Origin: an uncultured Gemmatimonadales bacterium
Lineage (GTDB): Bacteria; Gemmatimonadota; Gemmatimonadetes; Gemmatimonadales; GWC2-71-9
DNA length: 64,000 nucleotides
Direction of reading: 5' to 3'
Assembly (NCBI GenBank): GCA_963730185.1
Contig: CAVSQW010000008.1
Span: 224,001-288,000 of the forward strand
Shown: in pieces, positions 5,818 to 25,518 of the stretch
How the letters are laid out: every line of letters begins with the position of its first letter
Numbering within the stretch: the first letter of the stretch is position 1
Notes under the pieces: generated by a model
The model's database searches: none
The model's input: only the letters and a program-made list of their open reading frames with translations
Told to the model about the DNA's origin: nothing
Program-made: the position numbers and the translations under genes

Positions 5818-6618
5818 TTACGTGATCGCCAGACTCCCGAGAAAGTCGAGGATGGCGTGGTTCACGGCCTCGGGCCGTTCCAAGGCGGCGAGATGCCCCG
5901 CGCCGGCGATCTCCTGGAATCGTGACCCGGGCAGGCGCTCGTGGATCCGCCGGGAGACAGCCGGTGGGAGCGCTCGGTCTTCCGCCCCGGCCAGGATCAG
6001 CGTCGGGGCGGTGATCTCGCCCAGCTGCCCGAGCACCGAGTCACGTCCGAGGAGCGCCTCGAGTCCCCGGAGCATGGAGGGGACGTCCTGCGCCGCCATC
6101 CGGTCCCGCCACTCGCGCACCAGGGCGGCCTGCTCCCGGTGCGTGGTGGCACCGAACATCAACCGGACGATCGACGGGAGGAAAGGCCGCATTCCGATCG
6201 ACCGCACCCCGAGCGCCATGGCCCGGTACCGTAGCCGATGCCAGCCGGTCTCCTCCCCCGCGTCGCTGTCGAGCAGCACCAGACCCGCCACCCGATCGGG
6301 ATGCCGTAGGGCGGCCCGAAGCGCGACCATCCCGCCGATCGAGAGCCCAATCCAGACCGCCCGTGCCACTTGAAGGTGGTCGAGGATCGCGAGCGCGTCG
6401 CCGACGGCGTCGTAGAGCGTGAAGGGCGTCGTGGTGGGGGCCGAGGCGCCATGGCCACGGAGGTCCGGAGTGACGATTCGGTAGCGCCGCTCGAGGCTCG
6501 CCACCTGAGCGCGCCACATCGCCCCCGAGCAGAGAAAGCTGTGCCCCAGGAGCAGCGCGGGGCCCGCGCCGCTCACCTCGTAATGAAGCCGCTGGCCCTG
6601 ATGGAGGAGAACCGGCAC
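5818..6618 (-). CDS. Alpha/beta hydrolase (enol-lactonase-like)
   Basis: DLRGHG, GLSIGG, GAED, AGHL catalytic motifs; GTG start inferred at VPVLLHQG. Confidence 0.82.
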   Translation of the reverse strand: MPVLLHQGQRLHYEVSGAGPALLLGHSFLCSGAMWRAQVASLERRYRIVTPDLRGHGASAPTTTPFTLYDAVGDALAILDHLQVARAVWIGLSIGGMVALRAALRHPDRVAGLVLLDSDAGEETGWHRLRYRAMALGVRSIGMRPFLPSIVRLMFGATTHREQAALVREWRDRMAAQDVPSMLRGLEALLGRDSVLGQLGEITAPTLILAGAEDRALPPAVSRRIHERLPGSRFQEIAGAGHLAALERPEAVNHAILDFLGSLAIT

Positions 6619-6784
6619 AGGGCCGAATGTAGCGAGCCGCCCGGCCCCAGGTGTATCGCAGGGCTGGCGGTCGGGACTTCCTGTGGGGCCCGGACCAGTC
6701 CAGACTTCGAGACGGGCAGGGCTTTTCCCGCACCCCGGCCGGGTGAGGCCCTGCCCGTTCGTCCCTCCTTCGGAGACCGCGCTC

Positions 6785-7689
6785 ATGTCCATCCGTCCCG
6801 TCAAACGTCTCATCAAGGCCAAGCCGACTCTCGAGGGTGCCGGCGTGCATCTCCGCCGCGCCTTCGGGTTCGGCGACACCTCCGAGACCGATCCCTTCTC
6901 TGCTGCTCGACGATTTCCGCAACGATGTCCCTGACGACTATCTCGCCGGATTTCCCTGGCATCCTCATCGCGGCATCGAGACCATCACCTACGTGCTGGC
7001 CGGGACCGTCGAGCACGGCGACAGCATGGGCAACCGCGGTACCATCGGCGCCGGCGACGATCCAGTGGATGACCGCGGGGCGGGGCATCATCCACCAGGA
7101 GATGCCCAAGGGTGATCCGGCCGGCCGGATGCACGGCTTCCAGCTCTGGGCCAACCTGCCCTCGTCGCTCAAGATGACGGACCCGCGCTACCAGGAGGTG
7201 AAGGCCGCCGACATCCCCGAGGTCACCGACGACGACGGCACCCGGGTCAGGGTCGTCTGCGGTGAGTTCTGGGGGAAGCGGGGACCGGTCGATGGCATCG
7301 CGGCGGATCCGATCTACCTCGACGTGTCGGTGCCGCCCGGCCAGCGGAAGTCTCTCCCGGTCGAGACCACCCGTCACGCGTTCGCCTACGTGTTCGCCGG
7401 TGAGGGGAAGTTCTCCAACGCTTCGGGGCCGCTCGCCGTGCCGACCGAGAGCGTAGGATGGCTGGACACGGCGCCGCCCGACACCGCGGACGACCGGTCG
7501 CTGGTCCTGTTCGATCGGGGCGACGAGGTCGTGGTGCAGGCTGGCGAAGAGGGGATCCGGTTCCTGCTGGTGTCCGGCCGGCCCCTGGTCGAGCCCGTGG
7601 CCTGGTACGGTCCGATCGTGATGAACACCCAGGCTGAGTTGCGCCAGGCCTTCGAGGAGCTCCAAGAGGGCACCTTCCTCAAGGGCTGA
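6785..7689 (+). pseudogene. Pirin family protein interrupted by two +1 frameshifts (pseudogene or sequencing error)
   Basis: Three frames join into a pirin: EGAGVHLRRAFG..DPF / LLLDDF..GFPWHPHRGIETITY..HGDSMGN / QWMTAGRGIIHQEMP..GFQLWANLP..GPIVMNT; extra bases at about 6899 and 7059-7060. Confidence 0.88.
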
Positions 7690-10115: not shown

Positions 10116-10166
10116 TCGAGCACCTTGGGGAATGTGCCGGGTCAGGGCCGTCTCCAAGGTGCTCGA
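10116..10166. promoter_or_regulatory. 13-bp perfect inverted repeat enclosing a GGAA-N16-CGTC ECF-type promoter motif
   Basis: tcgagcaccttgg (10116-10128) / ccaaggtgctcga (10154-10166); GGAA 10129-10132, CGTC 10149-10152. Confidence 0.55.
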
Positions 10167-10196: not shown

Positions 10197-11129
10197 ATGT
10201 CGGCCCCACGCCTCGACCCGGAAACCCTGGCCTCGTACCTGGACGGTCGGCTGACGCCGGCCGAACGGGAGCGGGTGCTCGAGATTCTGGCCGAGTCGCC
10301 GGCGGACTACGAGGCGATGCTGGCCACCGCCGAGGTGATGCGCCAGGTGGGCCGGGATCTGGTGGTCTCGTTGCCGGAACCCAGAAGCCGTTTCAACCGC
10401 CGCTGGCTGCTGGTGGCGAGCGCGACGGTCCTGGTCACGATCATCGCGTCGATGGTGTCGCGGCGAGTCTACCGGGCCGATGCCGGGCCGCCCCGGCTGC
10501 TGGCCGCCGCGCTGGACCTGGCCCCCGGGATGGGGCCCGGCAGCCTGGCCCGTCGCCTGGGTCCCGACTGGGTTGAGCCGGCCTGGCCCGTCACCCGGGG
10601 CGGCTCGCCCACGCTGCCGGACCGGGCGACGAGCTTTCGGGTCGGAGCCCGCCTGGTGGACCTCGAGGTCGCCATCCATGCCGAGGACCCGGCCCCGCTG
10701 GGCCGGTTGGACGAGGACTTGGCCCGCCTCGCGGGGCAGGTGAGCGGTGGCGGCGCGGTCGCGTTTCGGTTCGGCGCGCTGCGGAACGCCCAGCGCGACC
10801 CGGCCGACCCCGAGCGGATCCGGGCTGCGGCGGCGGCGCGGAGCCTCGTCGGGGCCTCACCCTGGTTCGACGTTGGCGCCTGGGTCGAAGCGGCCCGCCT
10901 CGCCCTGCTGGTGGACCGGGTGGAGTTCTTCGCCCCGGCGGGCCCGGCCGCGGGCCTCCTTCCGGGGGTGATCTCCGGTCTGGCGGGGGCTCCGGCCGAG
11001 CCGGCCAAGGCCGCGTCGGCGGCTGCCCTGCGCGCGATCGAGACGCTGAGCCACCGGACCGATCCCTCACCCACCGCCGCCGAGTACCGTGTCCTGGTCG
11101 ACACCGTCCAGGCCGAGGGAGCCCGTTAG
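10197..11129 (+). CDS. Membrane-anchored anti-sigma-like protein (zf-HC2-like N-terminus without Cys/His ligands)
   Basis: LDPETLASYLDGRLTPAERERVLEILAESP matches the anti-sigma N-terminal pattern; single TM helix WLLVASATVLVTIIASMV; about 210-aa C-terminal domain. Confidence 0.75.
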   Translation: MSAPRLDPETLASYLDGRLTPAERERVLEILAESPADYEAMLATAEVMRQVGRDLVVSLPEPRSRFNRRWLLVASATVLVTIIASMVSRRVYRADAGPPRLLAAALDLAPGMGPGSLARRLGPDWVEPAWPVTRGGSPTLPDRATSFRVGARLVDLEVAIHAEDPAPLGRLDEDLARLAGQVSGGGAVAFRFGALRNAQRDPADPERIRAAAAARSLVGASPWFDVGAWVEAARLALLVDRVEFFAPAGPAAGLLPGVISGLAGAPAEPAKAASAAALRAIETLSHRTDPSPTAAEYRVLVDTVQAEGAR

Positions 11130-14085
11130 GCGGCTCGTCCTCGCTCTGGCGCTCCTCGGCGCCCTCGCCTGCCGCCCGGAGACGCCCCCGTCGTTCCGGG
11201 CCCGGGTCGGCGCGGCGTTGGGTGATCGTCAGCCGGCGGGCCTGCGGCTGCCCCTGAGCGCCCCGCACCCGCCCCAGCTCGATCGCCTGACCATCCTCGG
11301 CGCCGAGCTGCACGCCACGCTCGAACGGCATCCCAGTCTCGATGCGGTGCATGCCGCCGCGGTTCTCGACCTGGCCCTGACGCCGGCCCAGGCGGGAGTC
11401 GTGGACCGGGCCGCCAGCCGTCTCGGCGAGGTCGTGGCCCGCCGGCCCGACGATGTGGCGGCTCTGGTGGACCTCGCCGCCGCCCGGGCGCTGCAGGGGA
11501 CGCTCCACCGATCGGCCCGGTATCGATTCGAGGCTCTCGAGGCGGTCGAGCGGGCGGCGGCGCTCGACAGCGCCAACCCCGTCGTGCTCTACGATCGGGC
11601 CCTGCTCCTCGATCGCGCCGGCCTGAACGGGCTCGCGGCCTCGACCTGGCGCCGGTATCTCGACGCCAGGCCCGCCCCGGCCGGCGCGGCGACGGCCCGC
11701 GATCGGCTGGCGGCCCTGGTCGAGCCGGGCCGGGGAGTGAGCGTGCGGGAGCGGGTGGTGGATTCGCTGCTGCCCGCGTGGGCGGAGGCCGTCCGCCGCG
11801 GCCGCGAGGATCGAGCCGATCGGCTGTTCCTCGAGGCCGACTCGTTGGCCGAGGAGGCGAGTCTCCGGGGCGATTCGACCGGGTATCACGCGGTCGCCGC
11901 GGTGGCCGGCGCGGGCGATCGGACCCGAGTGGCCGAGGGCTTGGCCGCCTACGCCGACGGCTGGGCCCGCTATCATGCCGGCCGTTTCGAGCAGGCCGTC
12001 GGGCCCTTGGCCCGGGCTGACCGGCTCTTGGCGCCGACGCCCGAACTGGCCGTCTGGCCCCGCCTGCTGCTGGCGGCGGTGGCCCTCTATCGGCGCCGGT
12101 ATCCGGAGGCGCTCGACACCTACACCGCGATCGCCGAGGCGGCCGCCGTCCGGAGCGATCGGAGCCTCCGGGCTCGGGCGGCGGTCGGAGCCGCCCTGGT
12201 CGAGGCCCGGACCGGGCGGATGGATCGGTCCGCCGATTGGTACGCCGTCGCGGCGACGGCCCTGGTCGGGCTCGACGAGCCGGCGTCGCTGGGGAGCGTC
12301 CAGTCCCAGCAGGCGGAGATCGACTGGTATCGGGGCCTCGACGATCGGGCCCTGGCCGCCGCCGAACGGGCCATCGTCCGGCTGGGGGCAGGCCCGGCGG
12401 GCGACCTCCGGGAGAACGCGTTGGCCTCGTTAGGCAGCATGCTGGCCGACCTTCGGATGCCCAGGGCGGCGTTGGCGGTGCTGGCCGAGGGGACCTGGGT
12501 GGCCGATCAGACGGGTCGGGCCAAAGACCCGCCGGAGATGGCGGCCCGCACCGCCGAGGCGGCCGAGGCGCTCGGCCTTCGGGAGCTGGCCCGAGCCCGG
12601 ATCGCCGCCGGCCGGGGGATGGTCGCCGGCCTGTCGGACAGCCTGATGCGATCGCGGATCGCGGCCGACCTGGACCGGGCCGAAGCCGGCCTCCTGGCGG
12701 AGGACGACCCGGCCGGCGCGGCGGCTCGGTTGGACCGGGTGGTGCGGTATTTCGAGGCGGGGTACGAAGTCGCCCTCCCTCCGGTCCTGGTCCGCCGGGC
12801 GGCGGCCCGGCTCGCCGCCGGCGACTCGGCCGGCGCCCGGGCCGATCTCGACCGGGCCGCCCGGTTGGTGGAAGCCCGCGCCGCCGACACGGGCGATCGG
12901 GCCGACCAGGCGGCGCAGCTCGAAGCGCGGGCCGACCTCTTCCACGCCCTCGTGGCGCTCGAGGTGGACCGGGGCGACACCTTGGCGGCCTTCCGAGAGG
13001 TCGATCGCTCCCACCCGGACGTGGGCCGGCCCGGCTCCCGCGACCCCTCGCCGCTCTCGCTGCCGTCCCGGCTCGCGCCCGACCTCGCCGTGGTCGAGTA
13101 CGCGGTGCTCGAGGATCGGACCGTCGCGTGGGTGGTCCGGCGCTCCGGCATCCGGATGGTCGTGACCCCGGTGGATCGGGCGGCCGAGCGGGCGCTGGTC
13201 GACCGGGTCGAGAACCTGGCCCGGCATCCCGGAGACGATCTCGCCGACGATCCCGCGGCGGCGCTCGTGGATCTGCTCATCACCCCGATCGAGCCGGCGT
13301 TGGCCGGCGTCCGGGAGCTGGTGATCGTCCCGGACGGGCTGCTCCGGCGGGTGCCCTTCGCCGCCCTGAGGCGGCGGTCGACGGGCCGCTTTCTGGTGGA
13401 GGATCTCGTCCTTCGGTTCGCGTCCCGGGCGGCCGACGTGGGCAACTCGAGACCCGCCTCGTGGGCGTCGCTCCGGCGCCGCCCCGTCCTGGTGGCCGGG
13501 CCGCGGTTCGACCGAGAGGTCTTTCCGGATCTCGACCCACTGGAGCACGTCGTCGAGGAGGTCGGAGGCATCGCGAGCATCTACCCGGCCGCCCGAACCC
13601 TGGCGCCCCGCCAAGCGACCCGGGCCGGCGTTCTGGCGGCGCTTCTCCACGCCAGCGTCTTCCACTTCGCCGGCCACGTGCGATCCCTCGATGTCTCGAC
13701 CGACGCGACCCATCTGGTGCTCGCCGAAGCGGCCGGCGGACTCCGAGCGAACGCCCTCTTCGGACGGGAAATCGCCCGGCTCGACCTCCGGGGGCTGGAC
13801 CTGGTGGTGCTCTCCGGGTGCGGGACGGTGGCGCGCGACCGGTCGGTGGGAGGGCTCAGCAGCGTGGCGCAGGCCTTTCTGGCGGCCGGCGCGGGCGGGG
13901 TGGTGAGCAGCCTCTGGGAGGTCGACGACCGCGAGACCGCCGAGCTGATGATCGACTTCCATCGGGCGCTGGCCGGGGGCGCGCCGCCGCCGCTGGCGCT
14001 GCAGCGGGCCCAGCGACTGGCGATTCGCCGCTCGGACGGCCGGGTGGCGGCGGCGTGGGCCGCGTTTCGATTCGAGGGTCGCTGA
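11089..14085 (+). CDS. TPR/helical-repeat + CHAT (caspase-HetF) domain protein, putative lipoprotein
   Basis: C-terminal CHAT motifs LVIVPDGLLRRVPFAAL, FHFAGH (His), VVLSGCGT (Cys), AFLAAGA..VVSSLWEVDD, ALQRAQ, WAAF; N-terminal RRLVLALALLGALA-C lipobox. Confidence 0.9.
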   Translation: MSWSTPSRPREPVRRLVLALALLGALACRPETPPSFRARVGAALGDRQPAGLRLPLSAPHPPQLDRLTILGAELHATLERHPSLDAVHAAAVLDLALTPAQAGVVDRAASRLGEVVARRPDDVAALVDLAAARALQGTLHRSARYRFEALEAVERAAALDSANPVVLYDRALLLDRAGLNGLAASTWRRYLDARPAPAGAATARDRLAALVEPGRGVSVRERVVDSLLPAWAEAVRRGREDRADRLFLEADSLAEEASLRGDSTGYHAVAAVAGAGDRTRVAEGLAAYADGWARYHAGRFEQAVGPLARADRLLAPTPELAVWPRLLLAAVALYRRRYPEALDTYTAIAEAAAVRSDRSLRARAAVGAALVEARTGRMDRSADWYAVAATALVGLDEPASLGSVQSQQAEIDWYRGLDDRALAAAERAIVRLGAGPAGDLRENALASLGSMLADLRMPRAALAVLAEGTWVADQTGRAKDPPEMAARTAEAAEALGLRELARARIAAGRGMVAGLSDSLMRSRIAADLDRAEAGLLAEDDPAGAAARLDRVVRYFEAGYEVALPPVLVRRAAARLAAGDSAGARADLDRAARLVEARAADTGDRADQAAQLEARADLFHALVALEVDRGDTLAAFREVDRSHPDVGRPGSRDPSPLSLPSRLAPDLAVVEYAVLEDRTVAWVVRRSGIRMVVTPVDRAAERALVDRVENLARHPGDDLADDPAAALVDLLITPIEPALAGVRELVIVPDGLLRRVPFAALRRRSTGRFLVEDLVLRFASRAADVGNSRPASWASLRRRPVLVAGPRFDREVFPDLDPLEHVVEEVGGIASIYPAARTLAPRQATRAGVLAALLHASVFHFAGHVRSLDVSTDATHLVLAEAAGGLRANALFGREIARLDLRGLDLVVLSGCGTVARDRSVGGLSSVAQAFLAAGAGGVVSSLWEVDDRETAELMIDFHRALAGGAPPPLALQRAQRLAIRRSDGRVAAAWAAFRFEGR

Positions 14086-14169
14086 TCCCTTCGGGAAACG
14101 GAAATCGGCCCGTCGGGCCGTCCAATTCCGGAGGACGTCGTCTCGATCCGCTCTCTCCAGCCCCGCGAG

Positions 14170-14907
14170 ATGCCCATGCCCACCAACGCCGCGCTCACCA
14201 TTCGAGGAGTGATCCTCTTCGATCTCACCGACATCACCCGGATCAAGTTGGTCTTTCCCGAGACCGTCGGGCCCTGGGTCGACTGCCATCACCAGTCGCG
14301 ACACGAGCCGATCCTCACCGTCTGGCACGACGGGACCAAGGGCGCTCAGGTCAAGATCCGGGGGATGGACCTGGTGGCCGCGACCGAACCAGGCCTCGTC
14401 GTGCCCCGTCTGTCGGGGCTCCCCGATTTTCGCCTGCTGAGCCCGCCCGGGGCGGCCCTCGACTCCGGCCTGGTCGCGTCGACCGGCCGGGTTGCGGCGA
14501 CCGTGACCTTGCCTGGCGGCAGTCTCGAGGCGACGAGTCTCTCGCCCGAGATCTGGACCTTCGGAGGAACCAGTCTGGGTCAGCTGGCGAGCGAGGTGAT
14601 CTGGACCGCGCCCAGCGCCGGGCCCGTCCCGCTCCTGGACTCGGCGGGGAAGAACGTCGTGACGCTTCCCCCGGGCGACCTCGTCGTGCTCGGGCACTTC
14701 GATCACCCGGACGACGCCAACAGTCCCAATCCGGTGCCCCATCCCTGCGCGCCGGTCGACGGCCAGGTCGCGGACGTAGATTTCGACTGGCTCAACGATC
14801 TCCTCGTCGGGAGGCCGAGCGGCCGACCGGTGCCGACCACGTCGCTTGGCGTCGCGATGCCGCGAAATCCCTTCACCTCGACCTGCTACGGCGGAACCTG
14901 GCCGTAG
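14170..14907 (+). CDS. Hypothetical protein downstream of the CHAT gene
   Basis: 245-aa ORF with normal GC3 codon bias and globular composition; no recognised domain; ends ...NPFTSTCYGGTWP. Confidence 0.75.
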   Translation: MPMPTNAALTIRGVILFDLTDITRIKLVFPETVGPWVDCHHQSRHEPILTVWHDGTKGAQVKIRGMDLVAATEPGLVVPRLSGLPDFRLLSPPGAALDSGLVASTGRVAATVTLPGGSLEATSLSPEIWTFGGTSLGQLASEVIWTAPSAGPVPLLDSAGKNVVTLPPGDLVVLGHFDHPDDANSPNPVPHPCAPVDGQVADVDFDWLNDLLVGRPSGRPVPTTSLGVAMPRNPFTSTCYGGTWP

Positions 14908-14915
14908 GGAGGAGC

Positions 14916-15140
14916 ATGATCGACCTCATCGGGATCGTCGCCGTCGTGGGCGTGGTGGTCTGGCTCTTCGGGCGCCGGCGCCCGCCGGCCCGGTCGGCCC
15001 CGGAAGACGACCTCACCACTCCGGTCGACCGGGACGAGCTCGAGGACGCGGAGCGCGAGCTGGCCGACGACCCCGACCCCCGGTCTCTCCACGACGGCTG
15101 GGCCGACGACGAGGACGACTGGGGACCGGGCGCGGCCTGA
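14916..15140 (+). CDS. Small single-pass membrane protein with acidic tail (74 aa)
   Basis: GGAGGAG RBS directly after the upstream stop; MIDLIGIVAVVGVVVWLFGRRR then a D/E-rich tail; listed only inside a long shadow ORF in the track. Confidence 0.75.
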   Translation: MIDLIGIVAVVGVVVWLFGRRRPPARSAPEDDLTTPVDRDELEDAERELADDPDPRSLHDGWADDEDDWGPGAA

Positions 15141-15250: not shown

Positions 15251-16628
15251 TCACCGATCCACCGGCAACCCGCTCGGCACCCGGCGCGGCACTACCCGGT
15301 CGAGATACCGGGCCCGCGGATCGGTCAGGGCCGACATGAAGGTCGTCAGCTGGTCCACCGTCTCCGGGGGCAGCACCACGCCGTCGATGATCGTGTCGCG
15401 GGTGACGAGGATCGCCGCGGCGGTCGGCTGGAGCGTGTTCTGGAGCAGCGGCTCCAGCCGGCTCGGGTCGAAGTCCTCGAGCTTGAGGTCGGACTCGCTG
15501 TAGTGATCGATGAAGTCGTGCAGCTGGGCGAAGGCACCGTCGTGACCGTAGGGGCCGGTCAGCTCCACGTTTCGGAGCGGGGTGGTCCGGAACAGGTAGC
15601 GGTCGCTGGTTCGTCCGGTGACCCGCATTCGACCGAAGTCGTCGCGGCCGTTGCTGCCGTCGCCCTCTCCCGGACCGAACTGGGCCAGCGCCACGTTGTG
15701 GAACTGGTTGTCGGTGAACGCCGGGCCGTTGTGGCAGATCGAGCACTTGATCGAGAGGAAGGTCTGGGCGCCGGCCAGCTGATCGTTGGTGAGGGCGCGA
15801 TCGTCCCCGGCCAGGAAGCGATCCCAGGGCGTGTCGGTGAACGTGAACTCGTCGATCAAGAAGCCGGCGATGGCGTTCGACGCGTGGGCGAAGGTCATCT
15901 TCCGGAACGGCGTGCCGGGGTAGGCGGCTTCGAAGAGTCGCCGGTAGGTCGGTGACCCGTCCCAGGCGATCCATCAGTCGTTGCCAGACCGCCTGGGGAT
16001 CGCTGTCGGGTACGGCCGCGAGCTCGTTGCCGCCGTCGCCCCGCATCTCCGACCGCGACAGCACCGGAAAGAGGCCCAGGGCTGAGGCGGGGCCGTATTG
16101 GAGCACTCGCTCCATGGCGGGCGTGATCGCGTTGCCGATCGGGGTCTGGAGGTGTCCGTGCGGGTCCTGCTCGACCCGGCCATCCCAGAAGAGCGACTGC
16201 AGGGCCGTGAGGTTGAAGAGCGACGGGGCATTTCGGGGGATGAAGGCTCCGGCCGGATGAGTTCGGGAGGGACCGAGGCCCAGGCCGCCCTGGCCGATCG
16301 CGAGGCTCCGGGCGTCACCCAGAGCGTAGGCCGGCAGGTGACACGTCATGCACGAGATGTCCCGGTTGCCGCTCAGGATCTTGTCGAAGGCCAGCGCCTG
16401 CCCGAGCTGCACCAGGCTGCGCCGGACGCGGGGTGTCCGGGGCATGGGTCCAATGCCCCGCTGTACGGCCAACTGCCGCACGACGGCGACCAGCGGATCG
16501 GCCGCCGGGCGAGAGGCCCGATTGAAATCCGGGGTGGGACCGAGCGGCTGCTGGTCCTGGCTGCCGCAGGCGGCGAACACCACGAGACAGGCCGTGGAAA
16601 CTACCCGGCCACGCTGACGCATCGACAT
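15251..16628 (-). pseudogene. Di-haem cytochrome c peroxidase/MauG family lipoprotein with one +1 frameshift
   Basis: Lipobox FAAC; LAFDKILSGNRDISCMTCH; RNAPSL; FWDGR; second haem CSICH; FRTTPLRNV; PYGHDG; extra base at about 15953 splits it into two ORFs. Confidence 0.87.
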
Positions 16629-17135
16629 GGGAGCTACCTCCGGGGGTGCGGTCTGGTCTAAGAGGTAAAGCGGATTCGCGGGGCCAGGCCCGACAGACGG
16701 CTGGCGGTGGGGACGGAAGTCCGGCTGCCGGGTTGCCGGGCCGATCGCGGACCGGGGCACCCTGGTCGACGGCCTCCTGACCGCGCCGGATCCGCTGGCG
16801 CTCCGCGACCAGCTTGAGCGAGGGATTCGGCCTATCGACGCTCGAGTGTTGCCCTCGCGCTACATCGAGGTGAACCTCGCGGCCTTTCGGCTCACGGCCG
16901 TCGCCGCCCGGCGCGACTTCAGTCACGGCTAGCATCCGGGGGGGATAGGGCGGGGCTGACCCGCCTCGCTCTGCGGTTCTCCGGACCTCTATGGGTACGA
17001 CCGGGCGCTGGACGAAGGCCGCCGCGAGCCCTTCTCCCCGCGGGGTGGTTGACCTCTACCCGGGCCGTTGGCGCCCTGTCCCTGCGGTCCCTCCGCTCCC
17101 TCGCCCGTCCCCAGAAATTGTATTACTTTATCGTC

Positions 17136-17149
17136 TGTATACGAATATG
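17136..17149 (+). repeat. 14-bp AT-rich motif TGTATACGAATATG, copy 1
   Basis: Identical to 35579-35592; both copies lie in upstream regions. Confidence 0.8.
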
Positions 17150-17182
17150 CACACAAACGTGGACTCAAATCGACCAAGGGAA

Positions 17183-17590
17183 ATGACCGGCATCAAGGTT
17201 CCCCCTCGCCGCGGCTCCCGCCACGGCTCCGCCAAGCTCGACGAAGAGTTCGTCGCGCACGTGCGCCGCTCGGCGCATGAGATGGGGTACTACCCGGTCG
17301 CGCGGATCGCGCGGGCGAACGGGGTGACCTATCGCGCACTCAAGGACGCGCTGATCGGCAAGACCTACACCCACGTCGACCGGGTGGCGTCTCCCTTCCT
17401 GGGTCCGACCCGCAAGCCCTCGTCGGGCTGCGTTGTCCGGATCGACTCCGCTTCGACCCACGGGTGGCAGGCCCGGTTCCGGGGTCGTTCGAAGTTCTTC
17501 TCCGACGGCGTCCACGGCGACCAAGCCCTGCTCCAAGCCAAGACGTGGCTGGCCCGCCAGGCCGCCAACGCGCAGCTCCGTCCAGCCTAG
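17183..17590 (+). CDS. Small DNA-binding protein: homing-endonuclease-type HTH plus AP2-like domain
   Basis: RGSRHGSAKLDEEFV..IARANGVT..GKTYTHV (HTH of the kind found C-terminal to HNH nucleases) and RIDSASTHGWQARF..SKFFSD..AL.QA..W (AP2-like); AAGGGA RBS; alternative start 17147. Confidence 0.68.
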   Translation: MTGIKVPPRRGSRHGSAKLDEEFVAHVRRSAHEMGYYPVARIARANGVTYRALKDALIGKTYTHVDRVASPFLGPTRKPSSGCVVRIDSASTHGWQARFRGRSKFFSDGVHGDQALLQAKTWLARQAANAQLRPA

Positions 17591-19953
17591 TCCGCGGCGC
17601 CCGTCGGATCGGGCATGATGGTGCCGATGGCCGGGGGCAGGGCGACGTTCGCCGCATCGCCGTGGCCGTTCGGTCGCCGCAGATCGGCCAGCGCGCCCCG
17701 CACCCGGTCCGATAGCCGGCGCTCCTCCCGGAGCAGCTCGATCAGGGTTTCGATCCGCCGGGACTCGAGCGGGAGGGCCGCCGCCTTGTCGAAGAGGTGG
17801 TCGACCTCGGCCTTCTGCGCCACCAACGTCTCCAACGCCGCCCGCAGGTCGCCGAGCAAGGCATCGGCGTAGGCCAGCCGCTCTTCGGCCGCCGCCAGCT
17901 GGCGTTGCCGGGCGTCGAGCGTGCCCCCCAGCGTGTCGGCTTCCTGCACCCGAGCCAGGAGTCGATCGAGCTCGGCCCGGGCCTGGGCGAGCTCCGGCTC
18001 GGCCTGAGTCAAGGCTCGCACGTTGACGAGCACCTGTTCCGAGAGTCCGTGAAGTCCTCGAATCTCCGCTTCCAGGCTGGCGATCCCGGCCCGCCGGGCG
18101 ACCGCGCTCTCCATGGCGCGGGCCAGCTGCTGTTCCAGGCCCCGCCATTCCACCAGACGGGCTTCGAAGCCGGTGATCCGGTCCTGGATGGTTCCCAGGC
18201 CGGCGATCTTGAGATCGAGCTCCCGAGTGCGCCCGTCGAGGGTGCCGACCCGCTCGTCCGCCCGGGCCAGCTGATCCTGGACCTCGCGGGTTCGCTGCGC
18301 CAGCGTCTCGGCCACGTCGGACGCCTCGGCCCGGAGGGTGGTGGCCCGGTCCAGGTGCTCGGCGGCCTGCCGGAGCGCCTCTTCCCGGCCGGCCACGTCG
18401 CGACCGAGCCGCTCGATCCGATCGGCGAGCGCTTCGAGGCCGCCGGTCCGTCGTTCCACGGCGCTCGTCGCGCCGTCGGCGGCCTTGACCCGTTGTTCGA
18501 GCGCTCGGGCGTCGGCAGCGAGGGTGTCGAGCTCGGCCTCCATCCGCGCCACCGTCTCGAGGCGGGGCAGCAGCTCGTCGACCCGCGTTTCCACGGTCGC
18601 CAGGTCGTCCCGGGTCCGGTCGAGCGAGGCGCGACCGTCCTGGATCTCGTCCAACGCCTGGCGGATGGCGTCTCGCCCGCCGGCGACGGCGGCGAGATCG
18701 CGCACGGCGTCGTCGAGGGTCGGCCGGGCTGCGTCGATCTGGGCCATCTGCTGGCTCAACCCGTCGAGGGTGGCCTGGAGGCGGTTGGCGTCGTCCCAGC
18801 CGGCCTTGGCACGGCTTGCCAGCTCGGAGACTTGGGCCAGGTCGGCCGCCACCTTCGAGACCTGGGCCGCAACGGCCTCGGCCTCCGCCGCCGAGGGCGC
18901 GAGGGTCTCCAGCCGCTCGGCGGTCTCGGCCAGGCGGGCGTCGGTGTCGCTCACGGCGCTGCGAAGGGCGGCCGTCCGGTCGGTCACCTGTTCGACACTC
19001 CGCCGCTCACTTGCCAGCAGCTCGGCTTGACGGCTCAGTTGGGCGTCGATCTCGTGCAGTCGGCGGCCCGCGTCCGACTGTCCCTTCTCGATGGTCTCGA
19101 GGCGGGTCCGGCTGGCGTCGGCCCGGGCGGCCTGGTCGACCTGCCGGGTGCCGGCCGCGTCGACCGCGGCGCCGAGCTCCGCGACCTGGCGGGCCAGCGC
19201 GGTTTGCCGCTCGATGCCGGCCTCCGCCTGCGCCATCATCGTGGTCAGCCGGTCGAGCGTCACGACGGCCCGATCGATCCCGTCCCGCTGCTGTTCGAGC
19301 ACCGCGACCTTCTGGCCCAGCTGGTCGGCCGCGGCGCGCGCGGCGCCGAGCTGTCGCTTCGTTTGCGCGATGGCCTCGGCGGTGGGGCCGAGGTCCATGG
19401 AGAGTTGCTCCAGGCCGGAGAGCCGGTTGTCGAGCTCGGCCACCCGGCGGGTGGCCCGGGTCCAGTCGGCGTGGAACGACTCGAGCTGCGCGGTCGCCGC
19501 CTGGTGCTGTCCGACGGTGGTTTCGTGCTGGGTCCGGAGCGTTGCGAGGTCGGCTTGGTGGCGCTCCAGCTGCTCGGTCAGGGTCAGGGCCTCGCCCTGC
19601 AGGGCGCGGAAGGGGCTCTCCAGTGCCAGAAACCCGTCGAGGTCGGTCTTGAGGGCCAGGGCCCGGTCGAGCGACTCGGTCAGGGTGGCGACCTGCTCGG
19701 CGAGTCGATCAGTGGCGGCGCGGGATTCGTCGAGCCGGCCGGCCAGCTCGGTCACCACCTCGAGCCTGGTCTCGGCCGCGGAGAGGCGGGCCGCCATGGC
19801 GTCGAGCTGCTCGAGCTGTTGGATCGATCGGTCGGCGTGCTGGACGAGGAGCTCGAGGTTGCCGCGGCGGGACTCGAGCTTGGCCGACATCTCGTCGAGG
19901 CGGGCGAGGTCGCGCGCGGGATCGCGGCGAAGGTTCTTGAGGAAAGACGCCAT
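17587..19953 (-). CDS. Long coiled-coil protein (788 aa), function unknown
   Basis: A/L/E/R/Q-rich heptad pattern throughout; no Walker A, TM helix or signal peptide seen. Confidence 0.85.
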   Translation of the reverse strand: MASFLKNLRRDPARDLARLDEMSAKLESRRGNLELLVQHADRSIQQLEQLDAMAARLSAAETRLEVVTELAGRLDESRAATDRLAEQVATLTESLDRALALKTDLDGFLALESPFRALQGEALTLTEQLERHQADLATLRTQHETTVGQHQAATAQLESFHADWTRATRRVAELDNRLSGLEQLSMDLGPTAEAIAQTKRQLGAARAAADQLGQKVAVLEQQRDGIDRAVVTLDRLTTMMAQAEAGIERQTALARQVAELGAAVDAAGTRQVDQAARADASRTRLETIEKGQSDAGRRLHEIDAQLSRQAELLASERRSVEQVTDRTAALRSAVSDTDARLAETAERLETLAPSAAEAEAVAAQVSKVAADLAQVSELASRAKAGWDDANRLQATLDGLSQQMAQIDAARPTLDDAVRDLAAVAGGRDAIRQALDEIQDGRASLDRTRDDLATVETRVDELLPRLETVARMEAELDTLAADARALEQRVKAADGATSAVERRTGGLEALADRIERLGRDVAGREEALRQAAEHLDRATTLRAEASDVAETLAQRTREVQDQLARADERVGTLDGRTRELDLKIAGLGTIQDRITGFEARLVEWRGLEQQLARAMESAVARRAGIASLEAEIRGLHGLSEQVLVNVRALTQAEPELAQARAELDRLLARVQEADTLGGTLDARQRQLAAAEERLAYADALLGDLRAALETLVAQKAEVDHLFDKAAALPLESRRIETLIELLREERRLSDRVRGALADLRRPNGHGDAANVALPPAIGTIMPDPTGAAD

Positions 19954-23221: not shown

Positions 23222-23336
23222 GCAGACGGGGTGCGGGCCGGTCCGTCGGGGGCCGGCCCAGCCGGGCCCAGGGGTCGCGCTCGCCCCGAGGGCCCGGGCG
23301 GTGCTAGGTTCCAGCCTTCTCGAGCGAATTCGACGA

Positions 23337-24593
23337 GTGATCAACGGAATTCTGGAGCTCACGGACCGCGGTGTCGGTCACCTCCGCCGGCGGGAAGCCG
23401 GCTACGCGCCCGAGGCGGGCGACCTCCGGGTCGACGACCGCGTCATCCGCGCGCTCGGTCTCCGGTCCGGCGACGAGATCGTCGGCGAGCTCGGGGACGG
23501 CAGTGCCGTTCCCGAGCCGGGGCCGGCGGCCGAGGCGGACGGCGAGCGAGGGCAGGGCCGAAGCCGGCGCGGCCGGGGGCGGAACCGCCGTCGGCGGGGC
23601 GGTGATCGGAGCGGCGGTCGCGGCGAGGGCTCGCGGGGCGGCGGCGGACCGGCGCTGGTGCGGGTCGTCTCGATCAACGGCCGCAAGCCGGAGGAGCTGG
23701 GCGAGCGCCGCCAGTGGGACCGGCTCGGGGCCGTGCACCCGAACGAGCAGCTCCGCCTCGAGTGCCCCCTGATCCGTCGGGGCCAGCCGGACTACACCAC
23801 CCGGGTCATCGATCTGCTCTGTCCGCTCGGCAAGGGGCAGCGAGCTCTGGTGGTGGCTCCCGCCAAGGCGGGCAAGACGATGGTTCTCCAAGCGATCGCC
23901 GAGGGCATCCTCACCAACAATCCCACCGCGACCGTATTCATCCTGCTGGTCGACGAGCGGCCGGAGGAGGTCTTCGAGATGGAGGCCGCCGGCTTCGGGG
24001 AGGTGGTGGCTTCGAGCTTCGATCACCCGCCCGCCCGTCACGTGGCCTGTGCCGAGCTGCTGCTCGAGCGGGCCCGGCGCCGGGTCGAGCTGGGCGAGGA
24101 CGTGGTCTTGATCGTCGACTCGATCACCCGCCTGGCTCGGGCCTACAACGCGGTCGTGAAGGGCACCGGCCGCACCCTCTCGGGCGGGCTCGACGCCCAG
24201 TCCCTCGAGCGCCCCAAGCGCTTTCTCGGCAGCGCCCGAAAGGTCGATGCCGGGCAGGGAGGCGGCTCGCTCACCATCATCGCCACGGCGCTGATCGATA
24301 CTGGCAGCCGGATGGATCAGCTGATCTTCGAGGAGTTCAAGGGCACCGGCAACAGCGAGCTGGTGCTGAGCCGCGATCTGGCCGATCGCCGGGTGTTCCC
24401 GGCCATCGACATCGTCGCGAGCGGCACCCGCCGCGAGGAGCTGTTGCTCTCGGAGGAGGCCCTTGGCGTGGCTCGGCAGATCCGGCAGCGGATCGGCAGG
24501 CAGACCCCGCTGGCGGCGATGAACGACCTGCTCGTCGATCTCAAGCGGAGCCGCTCCAACGCCGAGCTGATTGCGCAGCTGGCCGGCCGCTGA
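23337..24593 (+). CDS. rho: Transcription termination factor Rho, atypical short form
   Basis: PLGKGQR, APAKAGKT (Walker A), LVDERPEEV, DSITRLARAYN, SGGLD, FEEFKGTGNSEL, SGTRREELL. Confidence 0.92.
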   Translation: MINGILELTDRGVGHLRRREAGYAPEAGDLRVDDRVIRALGLRSGDEIVGELGDGSAVPEPGPAAEADGERGQGRSRRGRGRNRRRRGGDRSGGRGEGSRGGGGPALVRVVSINGRKPEELGERRQWDRLGAVHPNEQLRLECPLIRRGQPDYTTRVIDLLCPLGKGQRALVVAPAKAGKTMVLQAIAEGILTNNPTATVFILLVDERPEEVFEMEAAGFGEVVASSFDHPPARHVACAELLLERARRRVELGEDVVLIVDSITRLARAYNAVVKGTGRTLSGGLDAQSLERPKRFLGSARKVDAGQGGGSLTIIATALIDTGSRMDQLIFEEFKGTGNSELVLSRDLADRRVFPAIDIVASGTRREELLLSEEALGVARQIRQRIGRQTPLAAMNDLLVDLKRSRSNAELIAQLAGR

Positions 24594-24726: not shown

Positions 24727-25518
24727 ATGTCTCCTCTCTCGCGCGGCCTGGGCCCGGGTCAGCACGACTCTCACCGGCTCTTTCTGGCCGCTCTTCCCGC
24801 CATTCGGCGAATCATCGGCGTCCTGGCTCGTCGTTACGACCTCGAGCCCGCCGACGCGGAAGACTTCGCCTCCTGGAGCGTCGTCCGGCTGCTCGACGAC
24901 GACTGCGCCATCCTCCGGCGGTTTCACGGTCGGAGCGCGCTCGCCACCTACCTGATGGCGGTGATCTGCAACCTGTTCCGGGATTATCGGAACGCGCAGT
25001 GGGGCCGCTGGCGCCCGTCGGCGGCGGCCCGCCGCCTCGGACCGTTAGGCATCGAGCTGGACCGGCTGATCAATCGCGACGGGATCGGCGAGGAGCAGGC
25101 TGCCCGGCTCCTGGCAGAAGCCCGGCGCGGACCCGAGGCCGAGCTCCGGCGGTTGGCTCGCTCGCTGCCCCGCCGGGTCCGCCGTCGCGAGGTCGGACCG
25201 GGGGCGCTCCCGCTCGCGGTGGCGGCGGAGACGGCCGACGACCGGATCGATCGCGAAGAGGCCGAGCGGGCCCGGGCCCGGGCGCTGGAGGCGATGCGGA
25301 CCGTGATCGGCGCGCTGCCGCTCGAGGAGCGCCGGATTCTCCAGATGCGATACTGGGAAGGCCGTTCGATCGCCGACGTGGCCCGGGCGCTCCACTTGGA
25401 GCAGAAGCCGCTCTACCGGCGGCTCGAGTCGATTCAACGGCGCCTCCACCAGGCCCTGCTCGCCCTGGGCGTCGACCGGAGCTGCGCCGCCCTGGCGCTG
25501 GAGCTCGATCGGGCCTGA
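24727..25518 (+). CDS. ECF-type sigma-70 family sigma factor
   Basis: Region 2 DAEDF..FHGRSALATYL..NLFRDY; region 4 LPLEERRILQMRYWEGRSIADVARAL; long linker WGRWRPSAAARRLG; TATACT -10-like box at 24637-24642. Confidence 0.88.
   Translation: MSPLSRGLGPGQHDSHRLFLAALPAIRRIIGVLARRYDLEPADAEDFASWSVVRLLDDDCAILRRFHGRSALATYLMAVICNLFRDYRNAQWGRWRPSAAARRLGPLGIELDRLINRDGIGEEQAARLLAEARRGPEAELRRLARSLPRRVRRREVGPGALPLAVAAETADDRIDREEAERARARALEAMRTVIGALPLEERRILQMRYWEGRSIADVARALHLEQKPLYRRLESIQRRLHQALLALGVDRSCAALALELDRA

Follow-up and report, generated by a model that had tools for sequence, protein, structure and literature searches.

The window analysed here, a 64,000-nucleotide stretch of the genome of an uncultured Gemmatimonadales bacterium (contig CAVSQW010000008.1, positions 224,001 to 288,000; genome of 5.27 Mb, ~70% GC, 82% complete), carries four co-oriented genes for which an original prediction, made from the sequence, had proposed a signalling system. 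The proposed members were an anti-sigma factor (gene 1), a lipoprotein with tetratricopeptide repeats (TPR) and a CHAT protease domain (gene 2), a protein without recognised family (gene 3) and a small membrane protein (gene 4). All four open reading frames (ORFs) were confirmed (Table 1). Genes 1 and 2 overlap by 41 nt and are two ORFs, gene 2 having a predicted signal peptide of its own. A sigma factor of the extracytoplasmic function (ECF) class, of the cognate type and absent from the earlier account, was located further downstream in the window. Judged by comparison across relatives, genes 1 to 3 together with this sigma factor make up a module of four genes that is conserved in Gemmatimonadota and Acidobacteriota.

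In a neighbourhood survey, anti-sigma, TPR-CHAT and gene 3 were co-conserved with one ECF sigma subfamily. The window's sigma factor is the sole member of that subfamily in its genome (E 4e-133 vs 1e-4 for the next), gene 1 has no paralogue there by tblastn, and in relatives the same sigma subfamily is encoded directly before the anti-sigma. When 401 genomes of the phylum were searched with gene 3 homologues, three other loci were recovered, all of them with the same anti-sigma, the TPR-CHAT protein and a 260-aa ECF sigma factor with a long insert. Two sigma-anchored scans returned at least 48 loci, and 47 were kept after a partial locus (L056) was dropped; the sigma-anchored counts given here and below are among the matches listed. 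The anti-sigma was found in 37 of the 47, CHAT in 31, gene 3 in 29 and all three in 25; for the 25 loci with full context (at least 5 kb upstream and at least 6 kb downstream of sigma) the corresponding numbers were 22, 20, 18 and 17. An anti-sigma match was present in 60 of the 401 genomes. Among these, 21 anti-sigma-anchored loci were picked out, mostly on matches beyond the N-terminal domain and three of them first met through gene 3; sigma was present in 16, CHAT and gene 3 in 14, and neither in 5. After removal of four duplicates, 39 distinct loci had both sigma and CHAT, and gene 3 lay within 10 kb in 36 of these, directly behind CHAT in 29. Gene order and strand differ among module loci. 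The named loci of this sigma belong to Gemmatimonadota, Acidobacteriota or are unclassified. As a control, nine unrelated CHAT loci were inspected, and gene 3, this anti-sigma and this sigma occurred in none of them, nor did they occur at the genome's second CHAT locus.

That second locus (G000:C7:643100-647060; L001 5139-9056) encodes an ECF sigma, a zf-HC2-like anti-sigma and a lipoprotein TPR-CHAT of another subtype, and is broken by frameshifts resembling assembly errors. Module genes were duplicated at some loci, with tandem sigmas in L044 and L046 and two gene 3 copies in L021, L024 and L042.

Gene 1 agrees with the one-transmembrane (TM) anti-sigma proposed for it, having a single hydrophobic peak at residues 70-88 and a TM segment at about 68-95. 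The N-terminal domain has three helices, no zinc motif and no Cys or His, and matched zf-HC2 weakly, below the cut-off (E 0.017); the HxxxCxxC zinc motif was present in 4 of 45 anti-sigma homologues. In the structure model, the three-helix head aligned to RsiW, MucA and RslA at middling Z, and was followed by the TM and about 215 outer residues that include a helical outer domain. A TM peak of ≥1.6 was found in 38 of the 45 homologues, with about 200 residues beyond the TM. The outer loop at 122-141 is non-helical in the model and holds Arg134-Gly135; a motif W-x(3)-R-(G/S/A) lies in this stretch, and R134 was retained in 43 of the 45 anti-sigmas. The two without it (L048, L049) come from loci without gene 3, and the CHAT of L049 is of another type. 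Arg134 is a candidate protease cut site.

Gene 2 has a Pfam CHAT domain at residues 721-993, with the catalytic H863 and C911 in FHFAGH and LSGC, and an n-region and h-region leading to an LGALAC lipobox at Cys28, so that both the protease dyad and the lipoprotein signal of the original prediction were recovered. H863, C911, E824 and D947 were all present in 36 of 36 CHATs aligned (one of them the L014 fusion described below), at 22-34% overall identity; D947, in LWxVDD, may be the equivalent of the pocket Asp of separase. An N-terminal hydrophobic segment was found in all 36 (Kyte-Doolittle value ≥1.8 in 33, and 1.7 with a lipobox in 3), and a lipobox-like Cys in 25. By hydropathy and pattern, the protease and the C-terminal domain of the anti-sigma are predicted on one side of the membrane, as had been proposed.

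Anti-sigma and TPR-CHAT are split in most relatives and fused only in L012 and L014, both from Acidobacteriota, where TPR-CHAT follows the anti-sigma head and TM without a break. The first 94 residues of the L014 protein match the gene 1 family (hhalign 98.3%, E 1e-14), and the match stops at the TM. DdvA of Myxococcus xanthus is described as an anti-sigma that spans the membrane and carries TPR-CHAT on the periplasmic side, the CHAT being proposed as the site-1 protease (PMC11506125). Because the fusions share this architecture, the topology is not unprecedented, and the earlier statement that no characterised system has it does not hold.

Predicted sigma-type promoters precede genes 1 and 3, in line with the original prediction. 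The pattern given for them, GGAA-N15/16-CGTC, does match at 10129 and 14100, but on its own it occurs at chance level in the window (9 observed vs 8.4 expected); both sites were rescued by a fuller motif learned from relatives. The matrix was obtained by expectation maximization on 50 anti-sigma leaders with the window held out, and the motif, (G)GA(A/C)A-N12-G(T/G)CC(G/A)TC(C/T)AA, scored ≥8 bits in 46 of these 50 leaders (the training set). The same motif was given independently by 60 sigma leaders, by inspection mostly pointing away from sigma. Scored with this held-out matrix, the gene 3 leader site was near-consensus and ranked third among the distinct sites of the whole genome. The site before gene 1 was weak but positioned as in relatives, and 0.26% of random 100-nt genome stretches contain a site like it.

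Sites of ≥12 bits were found in 14 of 43 gene 3 leaders (window included) vs 0 of 43 gene-internal controls. Many CHAT genes hold an internal site where the gene 3 leader has none: across 36 loci, 11 had the leader site only, 14 the CHAT-internal site only, none had both and 11 had neither (threshold of 10.5, set after scores were seen; Fisher p 0.002, overstated by kinship). Ten of the CHAT-internal sites share one position, 2.8 kb ahead of gene 3; they are conserved at synonymous positions and beat synonymous recodings (≤1/1000 each). No conserved in-frame start was found after the internal promoter, and this promoter is absent from the window's CHAT gene. Leader and CHAT-internal sites together therefore suggest that gene 3 is a sigma target kept by two routes.

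Other predicted targets vary, and include an S53 subtilase (behind a cognate promoter in L008 and L087), an M1 peptidase, LuxR regulators, methyltransferases, TIR and NB-ARC proteins and secreted unknowns. When 23 genes behind predicted promoters were scanned with Pfam, 8 had no family, and no Cas or cyclic-oligonucleotide-based anti-phage signalling system (CBASS) family was found among the 23, whole loci not being scanned for cas genes. In the window's own genome, further strong sites stand before a low-GC 891-aa NB-ARC/TPR gene (G000:C6:30324, minus strand) and, read by eye, before a TolC-MFP-RND operon (C6:526940, plus strand) and a WYL gene pair (C9:9988, minus strand). These genes are a candidate regulon with a defence flavour, and other ECF sigmas could use the sites.

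For the gene 3 protein the absence of a recognised family was borne out, with no Pfam family in 50 members except one stray match. The 50 members were aligned at 14-33% identity. G13 and H45 were invariant and position 204 was His or Asp in all; C239, near the C-terminus, and W145 were each found in 47, and C15 in 29. The AlphaFold2 model (pLDDT 92.6, pTM 0.91) was all-beta with two or three short helices, and has a variable loop followed by a tail folding back as a strand; the loop (211-240) is of varying length and is the part with the lowest pLDDT. Gene 3 was found in only one (L017) of the five CHAT-less sigma loci with full context. By co-occurrence, gene 3 tracks CHAT more than the sigma pair and is the predicted dedicated output of the module. 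Its most likely way of working, with a chance a little short of even, is that of an enzyme or a metal-binding protein whose site is His45/His-Asp204/Cys239; feedback on the protease, suggested by the tie between the two, is a more tentative idea. In L007 (1330-8569), read by eye, the gene 3 homologue is followed by a caspase-like protein that NF047832 matches weakly, by several short ORFs that are rich in Cys and resemble precursors of ribosomally synthesized and post-translationally modified peptides, and by a small signal-less CHAT-like protein.

The reading that we favour, at a probability of roughly 0.6, is a split trans-envelope sigma switch of the DdvA type. The gene 1 anti-sigma would hold the ECF sigma factor at the inner membrane until a ligand activates the predicted lipoprotein TPR-CHAT protease, which would cut the outer loop of the anti-sigma after Arg134. 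RseP, whose gene is present in this genome above cut-off, would then cut the stub within the membrane and free the sigma factor. The freed sigma would transcribe the anti-sigma/protease operon, as a resetting feedback, and would strongly transcribe gene 3 together with a variable set of further genes. Such a cascade, which had been proposed earlier for gene 3 and the operon, gains comparative support from co-conservation, predicted same-side topology, promoters and natural fusions; the pairing of sigma and anti-sigma, the topology, the cleavage with its site and the RseP step are what we infer. Separase, a structural relative of DdvA's CHAT, is described as cleaving after Arg via a pocket Asp (PMC10317155), and RseP is reported to degrade DdvA that has been cut short at residue 128 or 140 (PMC11506125).

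Several observations weigh against this reading. At L017, L028, L030, L046 and L092 no CHAT lies near the sigma and anti-sigma genes, and homologues of the anti-sigma outer domain occur with no sigma or CHAT in the DNA fetched in L096, L097, L099, L101 and L104. In the window, 9.6 kb separate sigma from the operon, and no strong cognate site precedes the sigma gene. The partner profiles were iterated on the very loci counted, kin are not independent, and the sigma-anchored counts hold among the matches listed from a set of at least 48 loci. Signal peptides were assessed through hydropathy and pattern only, and an outward-facing outer-membrane lipoprotein could not reach the anti-sigma. A Tat-like signal was found in only two gene 3 homologues of the surveyed loci (one with a lipobox), and no signal in the window copy and all the others; most gene 3 proteins are therefore predicted to sit across the membrane from the protease. 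For DdvA itself, the H862A and C907A variants still repress and phage Mx4 triggers no autoproteolysis, and cleavage is reported for no DdvA-type CHAT (PMC11506125).

These DdvA results suit a different role for TPR-CHAT, namely a non-cutting sensor or shield that binds the anti-sigma outer domain, like RseB, while another protease makes the site-1 cut. In the resting cells described, the DdvA dyad mutants are without phenotype and the active site looks incomplete (PMC11506125), and the 170-residue helical outer domain of the split anti-sigma, absent in fused forms, suits docking. We consider this role unlikely, however, as all CHATs aligned keep the His, the Cys and two acidic residues despite their low identity, and the exposed Arg-small motif is retained in nearly all anti-sigmas (43/45). 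The protease may instead have gene 3 as its true substrate, with a cut in the variable loop before the Cys tail unmasking an effector, in the way that bacterial gasdermins are released by caspase-like proteases, and the sigma pair controlling expression only. The closeness of gene 3 to CHAT (36 of 39 loci, 29 directly behind) and the variable loop 211-240 would fit, and the CHAT-internal promoter of ten relatives could give a signal-less protease. But the loop has no conserved Arg, no conserved in-frame start follows the internal promoter, that promoter is absent from the window, most loci are predicted to have protease and gene 3 on different sides of the membrane, and the fusions link the protease to the anti-sigma; the idea is improbable.

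It is very unlikely that the operon here is a remnant, in decay or uncoupled, its sigma having moved away and its genes no longer forming one circuit. The displaced sigma, the patchiness of the module (only 2 of 21 congeneric genomes have the sigma) and the weak gene 1 promoter point that way, but all four frames are intact with host-like GC at third codon positions (0.86-0.90), the conserved residues are all retained and the gene 3 promoter is near-consensus. A further, doubtful reading makes gene 3 the signal of the module. Possibly a new fold, fast-diverging, without signal peptide and induced by freed sigma, it would reach the periplasmic TPR-CHAT only upon inner-membrane breach or lysis of a neighbour and activate the protease, so that the system would serve as a damage alarm specific to kin, with positive feedback. 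On this view the two homologues with Tat export would be variants deliberately placed on the protease's side.

For the split switch, the closest characterised system is DdvS-DdvA of M. xanthus, which the module resembles in working without being a member of it. An ECF sigma, a three-helix anti-sigma head, one TM and a TPR-CHAT with a His-Cys dyad (here predicted exported) are common to both, as are a linker with a candidate cut some 35-45 residues past the TM and RseP as (here proposed) second protease. The DdvS promoter, GTAA-n16-CGT (PMC6061681), resembles GGAA-n15/16-CGTC(C/T)AAT here, and MXAN_7287, the induced gene directly behind the CHAT gene there, is likened to gene 3 by position. Unlike DdvA, anti-sigma and TPR-CHAT are separate proteins here, the protease is a predicted lipoprotein, and the anti-sigma has its own helical outer domain and no zinc motif (zinc-binding anti-sigma, CHCC). 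The sigma gene is not coupled directly before the anti-sigma but lies 9.6 kb downstream, in relatives the sigma-type promoter usually stands between sigma and anti-sigma rather than before both, and no CBASS or CRISPR genes, of the kind in the defence-island regulon of DdvA/DdvS, were among the 23 candidate outputs scanned. DdvA is listed from Myxococcota and one Comamonas (PMC11506125), whereas this module belongs to Gemmatimonadota and Acidobacteriota. No published description of the split form was found in the literature searched, the supplements of the DdvA paper lying outside that search.

The type III-E craspase (Csx29-Csx30-RpoE) also has a TPR-CHAT protease that cuts a sigma-binding protein, as is proposed here (PMC10028731, PMC11506125). 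Csx29, however, is described as cytoplasmic and RNA-activated through Cas7-11 (PMC11506125), whereas gene 2 bears an export signal and scored 12.9 bits against the Csx29 family (cut-off 300); craspase is a more distant analogue than DdvA. In actinobacterial ECF54, compared by description, genes for a TPR-CHAT protein and a subtilase likewise lie near that of an ECF sigma, but the group is given as 100% Actinobacteria, the +1 gene encoding a carboxypeptidase-regulatory-like protein (PMC7826278).

Table 1. Features of the locus (window positions) and the CHAT-internal promoter of relatives.
Feature	Position or loci	Strand	Details
Gene 1, one-TM anti-sigma	10197..11129	+	310 aa
Gene 2, predicted lipoprotein TPR-CHAT protease	11089..14085	+	998 aa; Pfam CHAT E 1.7e-48
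Gene 3, all-beta protein, no signal peptide	14170..14907	+	245 aa; alternative ATG 14176 gives 243 aa
Gene 4, small TM/acidic protein, bystander	14916..15140	+	74 aa
ECF sigma factor, inferred cognate	24727..25518	+	263 aa; TIGR02937 above cut-off
Predicted ECF promoter of anti-sigma/CHAT operon	10129..10156	+	11.4 bits; 68 nt before ATG
Predicted ECF promoter of gene 3	14100..14126	+	21.1 bits
CHAT-internal cognate-type promoter	L008, L009, L024, L025, L027, L035, L036, L040, L041, L087		about 2700-2830 nt before CHAT stop

Gene 4, which had been counted as a member of the system, is a real ORF but a bystander, and was rejected as part of the module. Within the bacterium's family, 83 of the 166 genomes (including G057, unpublished) had homologues, usually near gyrB or other unrelated genes; module neighbours were found in 0 of 14 loci inspected, and gene 4 in 0 of 69 other module loci surveyed. 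In one protein of a close relative (P0015), gene 3 (79% identity) is fused to gene 4 via an apparent frameshift, and the adjacency of the two genes is therefore common to near kin only.

The direct neighbours of the operon are a PBP gene and a di-haem peroxidase gene. The latter (MauG-like, 15251-16760, minus strand) and a pirin-like gene (6370-7689, plus strand) are split over frames, which is consistent with assembly indel errors. A 199-aa possible DNA-binding protein (16991-17590) and a 788-aa coiled-coil protein (17587-19953) are encoded on the minus strand, and a Rho-like gene (23301-24593, plus strand; read by eye) directly precedes the displaced sigma.

A limit of DdvA is that enzyme and substrate are one protein, and the module described here separates both. 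It offers R134-G135 as candidate cut site, C911A as catalytic mutant, a putative cognate sigma and a near-consensus reporter promoter. It also offers a constant small partner, gene 3, maybe a ligand, an inhibitor or an output, which represents a confidently modelled protein family without assigned function. If the split switch is true, exported caspase-like proteases would commonly act as signal transducers in two soil phyla that are abundant and barely cultured.

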